From: Candidatus Latescibacterota bacterium
Lineage (GTDB): Bacteria; Latescibacterota; UBA2968
Assembly (NCBI GenBank): GCA_965116885.1
Contig: OZ220741.1
Coordinates: 5,376,001-5,440,000, forward strand
Direction: 5' to 3'
Length of the DNA: 64,000 nt
Under the pieces are notes generated by a model. It made no database searches, was not told the DNA's origin, and saw only the letters and a program-made list of their open reading frames with translations. The position numbers and the translations under genes are program-made. Positions 49,427 to 58,815 of the stretch are shown in pieces; position 1 is the stretch's first letter, and every line of letters starts with the position of its first letter.

Positions 49427-50785
49427 ATGCAACCCAACATCATCTTGATCAACTGCGACGACCTCGGCTACGGCGACCTCGGCAGTTACGGCTCTAAAAT
49501 CAACAAAACGCCAGCACTCGACAAAATGGCTGCAGAAGGCATCAAATTCACCGACTTCTACATGGCATCTCCCGTGTGTTCGCCCTCCCGGGGCGCCATG
49601 CTCACGGGCTGTTATCCCCCCCGCATAGGCTTTGGCTCTTTTGATGGACGCTGGGTCCTCTTTCCCGGCCAGGGTGTGGGCTTGAACCCCAGCGAAATCA
49701 CCATCGCCAAACTCCTCAAAAACAAAGGCTACGCCACCAAAATAGTCGGCAAATGGCACTGCGGAGACCAGCCAGAATTTTTGCCCACCCGCCACGGATT
49801 CGACAGCTACTACGGCATACCCTATAGCAACGACATGGGCATACAAAAAGAAGACGACAAAAATCCACCTCTGCCCTTATTGCGCGATGAGGAAGTCATC
49901 CAGGCACAACCCGACCAGCGCGGCATCACCGAACGCTACGTCGAAGAATGCGTCCGCTTCATGCGCGACAACAAAGACCAGCCCTTCTTCCTCTACCTCG
50001 CCCACATGCACGTCCACCTGCCCCACTATCCCCCCGAAGCCTTTGTCCGCGAATCTGAAAACGGCGTATATGGCGCGGCCGTCGCCTGCATTGACTGGGC
50101 AGCCGCCGTCATCTTCGACAAACTCAAAACCCTGGGACTCGACGACGACACCCTCGTCATCTTCACCAGCGACAACGGCTCGCGCGCCCGAGACGAAGGC
50201 GGCAGCAACAGCCCTTTGCGCGCCACCAAAGGCACCACCTGGGAAGGCGGACAGCGCGTACCATGCCTCATGCGATGGCCCGGCAAAATCCCCGCGGGCG
50301 AAGTATGCAGCGAACTGACGCTATCCATGGACTTTTACCCCACACTTGCAGCCCTCGGCGGAGCAGAAGTACCCACCGACCGCATCATCGACGGCAAAGA
50401 CATCCGCCCGTTCATGTTCGCAGAAAAAGGCGCAACATCGCAACACGAATCCTTCTTTTACTACAAACGCAACAGCATCGAAGCCGTGCGGAGCGGCAAA
50501 TGGAAACTCCACATCCGCAAAGACGACCAGGAAATCCAGGAACTCTACGACCTCGAAGCCGACATCGGCGAGACCAATGACATCAGTGATCAACACCCCG
50601 ACATCGTGCGGGATCTCAGAGCGCAAATTGACGCCTGCCGCAAAGACCTCGGCGACGATGCCGCGGGCATAACAGGCGAAAACATCCGCCCCGCTGGACG
50701 CGTTGAAAACCCCGACACCCTCACGCATCTCGACCGCGACCACCCCTATATGATCGCCATTTACGACCTCAAAGAACGGGGGTAA
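49427..50785 (+). CDS. Arylsulfatase A-like sulfatase
   Basis: DDLGYGD, CSPSR, GKWH, PYSNDM, TSDNG, EGGQRVP. Confidence 0.93.
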   Translation: MQPNIILINCDDLGYGDLGSYGSKINKTPALDKMAAEGIKFTDFYMASPVCSPSRGAMLTGCYPPRIGFGSFDGRWVLFPGQGVGLNPSEITIAKLLKNKGYATKIVGKWHCGDQPEFLPTRHGFDSYYGIPYSNDMGIQKEDDKNPPLPLLRDEEVIQAQPDQRGITERYVEECVRFMRDNKDQPFFLYLAHMHVHLPHYPPEAFVRESENGVYGAAVACIDWAAAVIFDKLKTLGLDDDTLVIFTSDNGSRARDEGGSNSPLRATKGTTWEGGQRVPCLMRWPGKIPAGEVCSELTLSMDFYPTLAALGGAEVPTDRIIDGKDIRPFMFAEKGATSQHESFFYYKRNSIEAVRSGKWKLHIRKDDQEIQELYDLEADIGETNDISDQHPDIVRDLRAQIDACRKDLGDDAAGITGENIRPAGRVENPDTLTHLDRDHPYMIAIYDLKERG

Positions 50786-52641: not shown

Positions 52642-54082
52642 TTGACGTACTCCCAGGTCTGAAGCCTGTGGGATTCTGAAATCAGAACCTCAGGTTCAGC
52701 AGGGATTGTGCGATCATCAGCCGTTGCTGGCTATACAAGCCCAGTCTTACGCGGCCTCCTGCATAGGTGGACGTCCCCACCTGTGAATGTTTATCGCCGC
52801 GTTGAGGTCCCTGTCTATTTCAAGACCGCAATGGTCGCAGCAGAATGTTCTTTCTCGCAACTCGAGATCGTCTTTCACGGTATCACAACCCGAGCAGGTC
52901 TTAGACGTTTTTTCCCACATATCAAGTTTTTTGAAACCTGTATCCGTCTTTTTGGCAACATACGCAACGATCGTGAGAAAATCAGAGAAACCGAGGTCGC
53001 TAATCTTTTTGCCCCACACCTGTTGCATGGCTTTGATATTTAACGTCTCAAAGCACAAGAAATCATACGCCGCGCATAGTTGATACGCAAGACGCCAATG
53101 ATAGTCCCTGCGCTGATTGGCTATGCGCCTATGCACTCTGGCAAGATTTACCCTTGCTCTGTGACGGTTGTTGCTACCCTTCTGTTTGCGAGAAAAATTG
53201 CGATTGGCCTTCTTGACCTTTCTGATGTTATGAGAAAAGAACAAAGGCGATTGTATTCTTGTGCTGTCTGAGGCTGTCAGGTATGTTTTCAAGCCGAAGT
53301 CAAAGCCTGCGGTTTTACCCGTCTTGACAATGCTTTGCTTGAACCTTTCAGCCTTTGCGACAACACAGAGCCACAAGTCGCCTACACGGTCACGCTTGAT
53401 TGTGACAGTCTTGATACTTTCTACATCGAAACACCTGCTTTTGTGATAGCGAAATACACGCTTGCCGATACGCACTTTGTTAGGCTCAAGAAATTTGTAG
53501 CCTGCCTGTTTCAGCGTATAGGACTTGTATTTGAACTTGCTACGGAATTGTGGCGGTCGCTTGTTGTCTCTGGCAAAGAATCTCTTATAGCCAAAGTCTA
53601 TGCGCTCAACCACATTTTGCAATGCCTGCGACGGTAGCAGACGCCAGTGGGCAAAGCGTGTTGTGTCCTTCAGCTTCTTGAGGTGATTGATCAGTGTGAA
53701 CTTACTCGGATACTTGCCAAATCTGCGGTGGTATCGCTTGTGCAAGGCAATGAAATGATTATACACCTGAGCGAAAGCGTCTATCTCTTGATGGAGATAC
53801 TTGTTTCGGTGGCACTTAGAATACAACTTGAATTTGTAGGTTAGATAGCCCATTATACTCTTGTTTTTTGGTTGGTCTCATCTGTATTTGAATGACTTAA
53901 ACATAAGTAAAATATACACTTAGGTATCGATTTTGTCAAACAAAAAGAGCACTTATGCTAAGCATGTTCCGTGACGATTCTACACGGAAGCAGAACCAAA
54001 ACCATAAGCCCTTGCAAAACAACGCTCGCCAACTCGCGTCTGCTTCCCACGCCTAAAGGCTGTGGGTTTTACGGGCTATTCG
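52642..54082 (-). mobile_element. Non-autonomous IS200/IS605-family element (tnpB only, IS1341-like)
   Basis: Left-end hairpin CCCACAGCCTTTAGGCGTGGG preceded by TTTAT; right end GAATCCCACAGGCTTCAGACCTGGGAGTACGTCAA; no tnpA. Confidence 0.8.
52747..53853 (-). CDS. tnpB: RNA-guided endonuclease TnpB
   Basis: RuvC motifs GFDFG, FETLN and DRDLNAAINI; zinc finger CSGC...CDHC. Confidence 0.95.
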   Translation of the reverse strand: MGYLTYKFKLYSKCHRNKYLHQEIDAFAQVYNHFIALHKRYHRRFGKYPSKFTLINHLKKLKDTTRFAHWRLLPSQALQNVVERIDFGYKRFFARDNKRPPQFRSKFKYKSYTLKQAGYKFLEPNKVRIGKRVFRYHKSRCFDVESIKTVTIKRDRVGDLWLCVVAKAERFKQSIVKTGKTAGFDFGLKTYLTASDSTRIQSPLFFSHNIRKVKKANRNFSRKQKGSNNRHRARVNLARVHRRIANQRRDYHWRLAYQLCAAYDFLCFETLNIKAMQQVWGKKISDLGFSDFLTIVAYVAKKTDTGFKKLDMWEKTSKTCSGCDTVKDDLELRERTFCCDHCGLEIDRDLNAAINIHRWGRPPMQEAA

Positions 54083-54196: not shown

Positions 54197-54247
54197 TTAC
54201 CTCTTGACCCCAAAAATTCTGACATTTATACTCTCTATTGAGATGCC
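54197..54247 (+). repeat. Duplicated promoter cassette, copy 2 (arsC-family promoter)
   Basis: TTGACC (54204), 17 nt, TATACT (54227). Confidence 0.85.
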
Positions 54248-54271
54248 CTTCACCGCAAAAGGAGATTTAAC

Positions 54272-54622
54272 ATGTCAAAAATCACCATCTATCACAACTC
54301 CAACTGAAGCAAATCCAATGGCGCAATGGATATATTGCGCGCTGGCAACGTCGAGTTCGACGTCATTGAATATTTGAAAACACCGCTGAGCGAACAGGAC
54401 TTGAGAAAATTTCTTGCGCTCCTGCCCGGTGAACCCAAAGACATGATTCACCCCAGTTCCTTCGAAAAACTGGGACGCGACATAGATGACTACAACACCC
54501 CCGATGCACTCGTCGGCTTGCTTTTGGAACATCCCGAAGTCATGAATCGCCCCGTGTGCATTCGCGGAGACCGCGCAGTCATTGCCCGTCCCTCAGAAGC
54601 CATACATGAACTTATAGATTAA
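54272..54622 (+). CDS. ArsC/Spx/MgsR-family protein, probable selenoprotein (Sec12)
   Basis: AAGGAG SD, MSKITIYHNSN-TGA-SKS... in frame with the tracked ORF (EYLKTP, MNRPV, IARP); the TGA aligns to the catalytic Cys. Confidence 0.82.
54321..54340 (+). promoter_or_regulatory. Putative bacterial SECIS hairpin
   Basis: GCGCAAT-GGATAT-ATTGCGC; the loop begins 20 nt after the UGA and starts with G. Confidence 0.7.
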
Positions 54623-54665
54623 AAAAACAGCCGCCGAGACCTGAACCTCGGCGGCTGTTTTTTTT
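54621..54665. terminator. Bidirectional terminator
   Basis: AAAAAAAACAGCCGCCGAG...CTCGGCGGCTGTTTTTTTT between convergent genes. Confidence 0.9.
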
Positions 54666-54677
54666 CATCTTAATAAC

Positions 54678-55466
54678 TCACGCCCCCTCCACCGCTTTTC
54701 TCAACTCATCACCGTTGCTTCGCCACCACGAATGCAGAACTGAGATATCCACCCCGATATTGAAATGCCGCACACCCATATCGAGATATTCCTTTGCCTC
54801 ATCGGGCGACATGATCTCTGCGCGGGGGTGAACACCCATACTCAGCGCAGTCTTAAACACCTCATTCCTCGCATCTGCCACTGCGGGATCACCGCGCTGT
54901 CCCGCCTTGCCAACACTCATCGAATAATCCGAAGGGCCCCATTGCACCATATCCACACCTGGAACCGAAAGAATCGCCTCCAGATTTTCCACCGCCTCCT
55001 TCTTTTCGATCATCAAAGCCACAACCGTCTCCCGCATCGCCTTCACATACTCAGGCCCCCCGCCATATCCCATATACGTATTGCGCCGCGTGTACACACT
55101 GTACAAACCGCCATCCTCCGGCGTATCTGGAAGCGTCACACGCACGCACTCTTTGGCGTCTTCTTCCGTGCGACAATCCGTAAACAAAATACTCCCAAAA
55201 CCAGACCCAATCGCCCGTTGCGACAAATAGTACTGATGGCTGCGATCAATTTTGAACATCATACCCATATTGTACAACTCGGCTGCGCGGCACAAATTGT
55301 CGAGATCGTAGAGATCAAACGTACCGTATTCACCAACGTATTCGACATAGTCGTAAAGTCCCGTATGTCCAATCGCCTCAACAATCGCCGGCCAACTCGA
55401 ATGAATGCGCGTGCCAATGGTAGGTTCGCCCGCATCCAACTTTTCTCTAATCCTGTTGGGTTTCAA
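54678..55466 (-). CDS. HpcH/HpaI aldolase family
   Basis: LMIEKKEAVENLEAILSVPGVDMVQWGPSDYS. Confidence 0.88.
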   Translation of the reverse strand: MKPNRIREKLDAGEPTIGTRIHSSWPAIVEAIGHTGLYDYVEYVGEYGTFDLYDLDNLCRAAELYNMGMMFKIDRSHQYYLSQRAIGSGFGSILFTDCRTEEDAKECVRVTLPDTPEDGGLYSVYTRRNTYMGYGGGPEYVKAMRETVVALMIEKKEAVENLEAILSVPGVDMVQWGPSDYSMSVGKAGQRGDPAVADARNEVFKTALSMGVHPRAEIMSPDEAKEYLDMGVRHFNIGVDISVLHSWWRSNGDELRKAVEGA

Positions 55467-57345: not shown

Positions 57346-58815
57346 ATGACACAACGCCCAAACATCCTCTTCTGCATTGCCGATGATCAATCCTGGCCCC
57401 ACGCCAGTGCTTATGGTTGCCCCTGGGTCAACACCCCGGCCTTTGACCGCGTCGCACGCGAAGGCATCCTCTTCAACAACGCCTTCACACCCAATGCCAA
57501 ATGCGCCCCATCCAGAGCCGCCATCCTCACCGGTCGCTATTCCTGGCAACTTCAAGAAGCCTGCAACCACCTCTGCTTTTTCCCATCGGACTACGCCACC
57601 TATCCCGAACTTTTCAAAGACGCCGGATACGCCACGGGATTCACCGGCAAAGGCTGGGGCCCGGGCGAACCGGGAACTTATTCAGATGGCTCACCGCGCA
57701 AACTCGTCGGTCCCGAACACAACGACCTCAAACTCGATCCCCCCACAAAAAGCATCGCCAATATAGACTACGCCGCCAATTTCGCGGCTTTTCTCAATGC
57801 CAAACCCGACGACCAGCCCTTCTGCTTCTGGTATGGCGGCAGAGAACCCCACCGCGGCTACGAATACGGCTCTGGCGTGCGCCTCGGGGGAAAATCCCTC
57901 TCTGACATCGACAAAGTACCCCCCTGCTGGCCGGCAACCGAAGACGTCAAAAACGACATGCTCGACTACGCCTTTGAAATCGAATGGTTCGACAAACACC
58001 TAAGGCAAATCCTCGACACCCTCGAAGAACGCGGCGAACTCGACAACACCCTCATCATGGTCACCTCGGACAATGGCATGCCCTTTCCGCGCATGAAAGG
58101 CCAACTCTACGAAATAGCCTATCACATGCCATTGGCCGCCATGTGGAAAGGTGTAATCGAATCGGACCGAATAGTTGACGACCTCGTCAATTTCGTTGAC
58201 TTTGCCCCCACCTTCCTCGAAGCCGCGGGGATTGACATCCATCCCCAAATCACCGGCAAAAGCCTCATGCCCATCTTCGAATCCAGCCAATCAGGCATCA
58301 TTGACCCGGAGCGCACCGCCCTCATCTCGGGCAAAGAACGCCACGACATCTGCCGTCCCGGCACCGTCGGATATCCCATCCGCGGCATTCGCGACCACCA
58401 TCACCTCTACCTGCGAAACTTTGAACCCGATCGCTGGCCGGCTGGCGACCCAGAAGTCTATTATCGCAACATCGACGACTCACCCACCAAAACGCGCGTC
58501 GTCGAAGAAAAAGAACAGGGGAATGAGACCTACTGGCAACTCTGCATGGGCAAACGCCCCAAAGAAGAACTCTACGATATCCAGACCGATCCCCACTGCA
58601 TCACCAACCTCGCCGAAAGCGCCGACCACCAGACCATCAAACGCGCACTCTGGCAAAAACTTCGCAAAACCCTCAAACAACACGGCGACCCCCGAATGGA
58701 AGGCCGCGGCCACATCTTTGACGAATACCCCGTCACCAACCCAGAACAAGAACAAAGAGTCAAAGAACGGTTCCGCATCGCCAACGAAACGGGTGTCTTC
58801 TTCAAAAACTTTTAA
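57346..58815 (+). CDS. Sulfatase (sulfamidase-like)
   Basis: PNILFCIADD, CAPSR, GKGWGPG, TSDNGMPFPR. Confidence 0.9.
   Translation: MTQRPNILFCIADDQSWPHASAYGCPWVNTPAFDRVAREGILFNNAFTPNAKCAPSRAAILTGRYSWQLQEACNHLCFFPSDYATYPELFKDAGYATGFTGKGWGPGEPGTYSDGSPRKLVGPEHNDLKLDPPTKSIANIDYAANFAAFLNAKPDDQPFCFWYGGREPHRGYEYGSGVRLGGKSLSDIDKVPPCWPATEDVKNDMLDYAFEIEWFDKHLRQILDTLEERGELDNTLIMVTSDNGMPFPRMKGQLYEIAYHMPLAAMWKGVIESDRIVDDLVNFVDFAPTFLEAAGIDIHPQITGKSLMPIFESSQSGIIDPERTALISGKERHDICRPGTVGYPIRGIRDHHHLYLRNFEPDRWPAGDPEVYYRNIDDSPTKTRVVEEKEQGNETYWQLCMGKRPKEELYDIQTDPHCITNLAESADHQTIKRALWQKLRKTLKQHGDPRMEGRGHIFDEYPVTNPEQEQRVKERFRIANETGVFFKNF

Follow-up and report, generated by a model that had tools for sequence, protein, structure and literature searches.

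A UGA-containing ArsC-family gene of a Latescibacterota bacterium and the two hairpins that follow its UGA codon

A short ArsC-like open reading frame in a Candidatus Latescibacterota genome is preceded, in the same frame, by a TGA codon, and the locus raises the question of whether this codon is read as selenocysteine (Sec), by what signal, and to what chemical end. A first-pass annotation of the 64,000-nucleotide window that contains it (positions 5,376,001-5,440,000 of a genome that is assembled as one contig of 5.56 Mb and is 98.4% complete) had proposed a hidden selenoprotein followed by a SECIS-like hairpin. We consider it highly probable that the product is a selenoprotein of 116 residues with the ArsC (thioredoxin-like) fold, a member of the known UxxS family whose UGA would be decoded by the genome's own SelA, SelB, SelD and tRNA-Sec, and we propose that a two-hairpin signal directs this decoding and that the protein acts as a single-selenol reductase.

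The reading frame and its TGA codon

The coding sequence occupies positions 54272-54622 of the forward strand, stop codon included, with ATG at 54272-54274 and TAA at 54620-54622, both read from the sequence, as is the Shine-Dalgarno element AAGGAG on the same strand at 54259-54264, 7 nt before the ATG. Eleven sense codons, MSKITIYHNSN, precede the TGA at 54305-54307, and the 98-residue open reading frame at 54326-54622 shares its frame with both the ATG and the TGA. With TGA taken as U the product reads MSKITIYHNSNUSKSNGAM... and is 116 residues long, Sec being residue 12 in the motif U-S-K-S; ribosome binding site, start, in-frame UGA and total length are all as the first-pass annotation had described them. 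The family assignment draws on Pfam ArsC (PF03960), against which the protein scores 38.5 bits with a gathering cut-off of 24, on the TIGR00014 score discussed below and on an alignment with R773 ArsC in which U12 falls on Cys12, the very match that had been suggested. Orthologues are colinear with the window gene from the start codon onward.

The flanks of the gene hold further candidate signals. A consensus scan finds a sigma-70-like promoter, TTGACC-17-TATACT, on the forward strand at 54204-54232 (10/12 matches), in keeping with the promoter that had been noted, although it is weak evidence because three such sites occur in the 1-kb region where 1.5 are expected. Downstream, at 54628-54665, an 11-bp G+C-rich stem with an 8-nt loop, an A-run before it and a T-run after it can be read from the sequence as a terminator usable on both strands. 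A simple terminator scan missed this element and listed the first hairpin after the UGA, on the minus strand, instead, and an Rfam scan of 54200-54700 (E up to 10) returned no SECIS family and only generic hairpin matches on the terminator. Contigs of 333-424 nt from metatranscriptome libraries (four runs of two studies) span about 54256-54660 with 95-99% likeness and leave the TGA unchanged; they start at 54256-54288, downstream of the promoter-like site, and end at 54612-54660. They bracket the long reading frame and cannot prove transcription, nor is the lack of any such contig over 54100-54255 evidence of a transcript start. Directly upstream lies a TnpB/IS605 OrfB-type gene on the minus strand (52747-53853), with OrfB_IS605 and Cas12f1-like TNB domains and a strong promoter-like TTGACA-17-TATATT of its own at 53939-53911.

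The TGA is retained in the orthologues recovered from each of three genome sets. In a set of 61 related genomes, every one of the 31 matches with 63-99% identity contains a single in-frame TGA, and none of the matches at 30-42% identity (E <=1e-10) has one. In 168 genomes of the phylum the TGA is present in 51/51 orthologues at 57-99% identity, in each case as codon 12 within the motif YHNxxU(S/G)KS. A species-level genome collection scanned with a 17-member alignment yielded 176 confirmed relatives, and the best 80 of these, which were kept, have TGA at the same codon without exception. The phylum set and the best-80 set, whose genomes overlap, together amount to 131 loci, among which 83 nucleotide sequences are distinct, with TGA in 83/83; a single Binatia order has 56 matches, 55 of them with TGA. 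By their titles the members of the window's lineage are mostly Candidatus Latescibacterota MAGs, and a group at 52-58% identity includes Binatia, Pseudomonadales, Myxococcota, Entotheonella and others; some of the taxon labels attached to near-identical sequences are probably binning errors.

The codons on the 5' side of the TGA behave as coding sequence. Tyr7, His8 and Asn9 are invariant in all 83 distinct sequences, with synonymous codon change (TAT in 35 versus TAC in 48, AAC in 67 versus AAT in 16), and translation must therefore start upstream of the TGA. The His8 codon (54293-54295), 10-12 nt upstream of the UGA, is CAC in 83/83 and never CAT, which may point to a further RNA-level or context constraint. 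Residue 12 itself pairs not only with Cys12 of the solved ArsC but also with the Cys of 30 Cys homologues, the Cys/UGA pairing that had been put forward as a check. The converse outcome, close relatives with TGC or TGT at this position, is contradicted by the TGA counts given above. Judged by the sequences, the ArsC-like TGA gene is a real selenoprotein gene.

The genome is equipped for Sec incorporation. Profile searches recover selA (580 bits), the adjoining selB (385 bits) and selD (369 bits), each above its curated cut-off, and a tRNA-Sec with anticodon TCA lies beside selD; all four genes whose presence had been called for are found, and the proposed objection that the machinery might be missing falls away. 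The selD gene (C1:607506-608627) has an in-frame TGA of its own and is itself a selenoprotein gene, SCGG-U-ASK, with tRNA-Sec about 100 nt downstream; 58 of the 61 related genomes have a TGA in selD. One genome of the same genus (G008, 98% complete) retains selA and an ArsC-like gene with the TGA (97% identity), but selD was not found there above cut-off (best 68.6 bits), which reflects either an assembly gap or a very recent loss of selenophosphate synthesis in that lineage.

Other TGA genes accompany the one in the window. A second ArsC-family gene, outside the window on the minus strand (C1:4004977-4005336), reads MSKINFYTWNR-U-STC..., scores 78.4 bits on the Spx/MgsR model TIGR01617 (cut-off 75.05) and has its TGA in 16 genomes of the genus. 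It and the window gene are the only ArsC-family genes of the genome, and since both contain TGA both are selenoprotein candidates. Five AhpC/TSA-family matches contain one in-frame TGA each (C1:1884269-1884640, 4348221-4348595, 3155338-3155832, 609008-609355 and 464764-465039), with the redox-type motifs GGUT, WUPHC, WUKRS, WUGC and SUTRC, and one of the five is directly beside selD and tRNA-Sec. A search of three genomes with PF02627 (AhpD-like) gave no TGA gene, and a codon-usage screen of read-through frames did not separate the three known TGA genes, whose scores on the 5' side of the UGA were low, from 8255 candidates.

With these data in hand the readings that dispense with Sec can be weighed together. 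For a nonsense mutation, a sequencing error or a pseudogene there is the stop codon itself and nothing beyond it; the same codon is TGA at all 131 loci and in the RNA-library contigs of four runs, and the sequence on both sides of it is under purifying selection, so that conservation of the TGA refutes this reading and we assign it a negligible probability. Reassignment of TGA genome-wide to Trp or Gly, with no selenium involved, finds an echo in one public entry (P0009) in which the site is translated as W, the mark of a table-4 gene call. That entry runs past the true gene end because it was translated with TGA as W, and TGA is not reassigned, because 12 of 30 orthologues end the ArsC-like gene with TGA; the complete Sec machinery and the restriction of in-frame TGA to specific redox-site codons also stand against reassignment, which we regard as almost inconceivable. 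A product of 98 residues starting at Met19 (54326-54622), the eleven upstream codons being a leader peptide or non-coding, is what most databases imply, since an ATG is present at 54326 and, among the best 120 of 587 public proteins, most are 95-99 residues long and start at this internal Met. Yet many orthologues have Leu, Ile, Val, Thr or Gln in place of Met19, a Shine-Dalgarno element and an ATG precede codon 1, and the upstream codons, which share the frame and over 83 sequences preserve the protein motif TxYHN while changing synonymously, provide the ArsC fold with its first beta-strand and its catalytic residue, so that the shorter product is hardly credible. Conservation of the TGA, upstream coding, use of TGA as a stop and the contigs together therefore make nonsense mutation, error, reassignment and a 98-residue product very unlikely, and leave a Sec-containing protein of 116 residues as the preferred reading.

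Two hairpins downstream of the UGA

The hairpin that the first-pass annotation had singled out, GCGCAAT-GGATAT-ATTGCGC, lies on the forward strand at 54321-54340 and starts 13 nt after the UGA; its arms (54321-54327 and 54334-54340) form a perfect 7-bp stem with the G-initial loop GGAUAU, exactly as described. A 61-nt stretch folds at -20.7 kcal/mol with z = -2.1, and 7 of 200 shuffles fold as well, which alone is only mildly unusual. As quoted in PMC13188914, the bSECIS model has a loop of 3-9 nt with G in the first two loop positions, a stem of 4-16 bp, a spacing of 16-37 nt and an energy of <= -7.5 kcal/mol; in the window genome this proximal hairpin lies within every one of these bounds (loop GG..., spacing 20-21 nt, 7-8 bp, -11.3 kcal/mol). 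The label SECIS-like thus stands for the window genome but not for the family as a whole, across which the hairpin drifts: the model fits only 38 of the 83 distinct members, and the count falls to 23 of 83 when a stem of 4 contiguous base pairs is demanded. There are 33 different apical loops among the 83 sequences, and two pairing registers with almost no covariation. The mean energy is -12.2 kcal/mol versus -6.7 for synonymous recodings, and some structure is selected here.

Hairpins at comparable positions follow the UGA codons of other genes in this genome. That of selD, AUCCAGC-GGU-GCUGGAU, also begins 13 nt after the UGA and has the geometry of the window's proximal hairpin, with a loop, GGU or AGU, kept in the 25 parsable of 30 related loci. 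The Spx-like paralogue has a loop GUG and a stem that starts 15 nt after the UGA, and each of the five Prx-like TGA genes has a proximal hairpin, with loops such as GGUC, GGA and UGGAU. Over selD, the paralogue and these five genes the hairpins begin 7-19 nt after the UGA and have G-rich loops.

A further hairpin, absent from the first-pass annotation, lies at 54348-54363 on the forward strand. This distal element, ACGUCG-AGUU-CGACGU, starts 40 nt after the UGA and encodes (N)VEFDV. Its core, GUCGAGUUCG, is invariant in 83/83 distinct sequences, and the invariance extends to synonymous positions: Val27 is GTC throughout, against four different codons for the neighboring, equally invariant Val31; Glu28 is GAG throughout, against a mixture of GAA (52) and GAG (25) for Glu33; and Phe29 is TTC throughout (all three fixed codons in 83/83). 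Asp30 is GAC in 71 and GAT in 11, the latter retaining a G-U pair, and in the first 30 sequences two amino-acid substitutions fall within the stem, replacing Asn26 and Asp30 by Gly; both stem from A-to-G changes and keep the pairing as G-U. An RNAalifold consensus of all 83 sequences consists of the distal helix alone, the proximal hairpin being dropped, and the distal hairpin folds at -8.1 kcal/mol versus -3.4 for synonymous recodings. Covariation, weak in the proximal hairpin, is by nature almost nil in an invariant distal one. RNA-level constraint on the two downstream hairpins is nevertheless shown by these comparisons. The exact 16-mer occurs once in the genome; its standing as a repeated genomic motif was considered and rejected, in that the inspected ones among 11 near-matches with at most two mismatches (5049997 and 369095) do not preserve the stem and the near-matches form no series after in-frame TGAs.

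The distal motif also tracks the presence of Sec. VEFDV is found in 67 of the 68 Sec-type database entries (95-99-residue forms) that reach the motif, and in none of the 30 Cys homologues, where VEHEV, VPCDV, ADFEV, VEFEV and the like take its place even at 72-75% identity to Sec forms. The single TGC gene of the Binatia order (L225) has GTC changed to ATC, which breaks a G-C pair and is the only core change seen, while the distal core is unchanged in the 30 TGA loci that were parsed alongside. P0019, a Cys form that falls inside the clade of the window gene, has VDYDV at this site, and a public entry with Ser at residue 12 (P0006) has VEFDV intact; the three may be snapshots of Sec loss. The argument from Cys revertants rests on one locus with DNA (L225) and on protein-level motifs. 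In addition, the distal loop shares its GU with the selD hairpin, whose loop is (G/A)GU in 25 related genomes. Synonymous invariance, tracking of Sec and the GU loop are our reasons for proposing that the distal hairpin is needed for Sec insertion.

It must be asked whether the proximal hairpin alone (54321-54340) could be the SECIS, the protein still being a selenoprotein and the distal hairpin serving ribosome pausing, mRNA stability or the binding of another factor. The proximal hairpin could play this role because the distal one falls outside the bSECIS spacing quoted in PMC13188914, and because all other TGA genes examined in the genome have a proximal hairpin; the agreement of the window's own hairpin with every bound of the model points the same way. 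Against this stand the unconserved proximal loop, with its 33 sequences, the fit of the proximal hairpin to the model in only 38 of 83, the loss of the proximal hairpin from the RNAalifold consensus and the close association of the distal motif with Sec rather than Cys forms. On balance we think a proximal SECIS acting by itself rather unlikely, though well short of negligible.

In the two-hairpin reading that we prefer, the UGA at 54305-54307 would be decoded as Sec by the genome's SelA, SelB, SelD and tRNA-Sec, placing Sec at the catalytic Cys12 position of a glutaredoxin-type arsenate reductase fold. Both hairpins would direct the recoding: the distal one, with its invariant AGUU loop, probably carries the sequence-specific SelB determinant, and the variable proximal one, at canonical distance, is probably a folded spacer with a structural role, positioning the distal hairpin at the mRNA entrance. 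A bolder and more tentative proposal, which we rate at slightly worse than an even chance, is that the recoding signal of the whole family is the invariant distal hairpin 40 nt after the UGA, outside the accepted spacing and brought to the ribosome by the variable proximal one; that this arrangement is conserved across several phylum-level groups and freezes a VEFDV motif that decays once Sec gives way to Cys; and that, in parallel, the clade to which the window protein belongs has exchanged arsenate chemistry for a different substrate.

Active site and likely substrate

Alignment with R773 ArsC pairs U12 with Cys12, S15-N16 with S15-R16, H60 with Arg60, R93 with Arg94 and R106 with Arg107. 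The first-pass annotation had remarked that the NRP and ARP arginines are kept, that SN replaces the usual SR and that the LLR region reads MIH, and these statements correspond to R93 and R106, N16 and H60, respectively. Arg60, Arg94 and Arg107 form what we take to be the arginine triad of glutaredoxin arsenate reductases; with His60, Arg93 and Arg106 the window protein retains two of the three. The His60 codon is at 54449-54451 on the forward strand, at the Arg60 position of the R773 alignment, and His60 is invariant in the 17-member alignment (A2). Asn16, peculiar to the window's genus, carries little weight against arsenate since the other genera of the clade keep Arg16 and hence SR.

The best 80 of 176 relatives divide into two Sec subclades, with His60 in 48 and Arg60 in 32. 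The His60 subclade is a supported branch of a quick tree (SH-aLRT 97) and scores 80-101 bits on TIGR00014, three other members giving 90.7, 91.6 and 100.7 bits and the window protein the lowest value, 80.4, all short of the 106.05 cut-off; the Arg60 subclade, which reads LVRKDK, scores 96-112 bits, that is, around the cut-off.

Genomic context offers no link to arsenic resistance. The neighbors of the window gene are the TnpB/IS605 OrfB gene, an HpcH aldolase, an aldo-keto reductase and sulfatases, with no ars gene among them, as had been stated, and neighborhood clustering found no ars neighbor at 80 other family loci either. The same clustering of 80 loci gave no partner gene common across lineages, with synteny within lineages only, and in every lineage the gene is monocistronic between divergent or convergent neighbors. 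Neither ACR3 nor ArsB was found in the 98%-complete genome with the models used. His60, the sub-cut-off TIGR00014 score, the lack of ars neighbors and the failure to find ACR3 or ArsB thus disfavor arsenate reduction, which for the His60 clade appears possible but unproven and somewhat disfavored. The two sulfatase genes, at 49427-50785 and 57346-58815, lie on either side of the region and, together with sponge, coral and marine metatranscriptome holders of the gene, fit a sulfated-glycan-degrading Latescibacterota symbiont.

In R773 ArsC the adduct formed during catalysis is resolved by an external thiol. The only other Cys of the window protein, Cys96, is not conserved, so single-selenol chemistry with an external thiol is expected here as well: Arg93, Arg106 and His60 would hold the substrate, an oxyanion or a mixed disulfide, for attack by the Sec12 selenolate, and the external thiol would then resolve the Se-adduct. 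The 98%-complete genome yielded no gshB with TIGR01380 and, the paralogue aside, a single glutaredoxin-domain gene. We speak of a putative Sec-dependent oxyanion or mixed-disulfide reductase.

Relation to known families and systems

The gene itself is of modest interest; it is the distal hairpin and the His60 clade that merit specialist attention. Most of the best 120 database members of this family are mis-annotated with an internal Met start that costs them the catalytic residue, and automated inventories of gene function and selenium use therefore under-count the family in Latescibacterota, Binatia and marine Gammaproteobacteria. For such genes the invariant distal hairpin offers a simple nucleotide marker. 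Should it prove to be the SelB-binding site, it would constitute a natural bacterial SECIS at non-canonical distance, with a bearing on SECIS prediction rules and on engineered Sec insertion. With both ArsC-family genes of the genome being selenoprotein genes and no common arsenite pump found, the label 'arsenate reductase' is itself open to question. Public names among the best 120 of 587 proteins are mostly 'ArsC/Spx/MgsR family protein' or 'arsenate reductase', and in that set one entry reads W at the Sec site and one reads S.

The idea that Sec-containing ArsC-like proteins had been reported from environmental data is well founded. In the 2005 Sargasso Sea study (PMC1088965) an 'arsenate reductase' (COG1393, UxxS, 14 sequences) is among the new selenoprotein families; the GOS survey (PMC2398784) has 'ArsC 1, pfam03960, UxxS'; and a 2026 review (PMC13188914) places the UxxS 'arsenate reductase' family under TIGR00014. 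The window's U-S-K-S corresponds to the family definition given by PMC1088965 and PMC2398784 (ArsC/COG1393 homology plus Sec in U-x-x-S), fitting the UxxS family, and the paralogue's U-S-T-C fits a second family. On sequence grounds the window gene belongs to this 'arsenate reductase UxxS' family, and the family is not new. A literature search for Latescibacter* with selenocysteine gave no title that addresses the window gene, and Figures 3 and 4 of PMC1088965 may already show one or the other hairpin.

Comparison with each of the known systems defines the position of the gene. With the UxxS family it has in common the ArsC fold, Sec at the Cys12 position, a small stand-alone gene and an origin in marine or environmental bacteria, and it differs in belonging to a His60 subclade composed mostly of Latescibacterota MAGs. 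The Spx/MgsR model TIGR01617 gives the window protein 37 bits against the 75.05 required. R773 ArsC (PDB 1I9D, 1JZW) is colinear with it over 114 residues (E 2.5e-14), and the H-N-x-x-(C/U) loop, Ser15 and the equivalents of Arg94 and Arg107 are kept. R773 ArsC, however, has Cys12, Arg60 and Arg16 where the window protein has Sec12, His60 and Asn16 (the last in the window's genus only), and it is 141 residues long, whereas the window protein, at 116 residues, lacks both the C-terminal extension and an ars operon. The YfgD-like Cys homologues of the same phylum, of the CSKSR type, have the same length and the same C/U-S-K-S(R) loop and sit beside the Sec gene in many of the same genomes, but they are only 30-42% identical, have Cys, keep Arg60, lack VEFDV and the hairpin, and form a separate, fully supported branch of the quick tree (SH-aLRT). 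As for the bSECIS model quoted in PMC13188914, the distal hairpin departs from it in spacing only, with 46 nt from UGA to loop against 16-37 nt, while the proximal hairpin of the window, unlike the distal one, has the right spacing as well.
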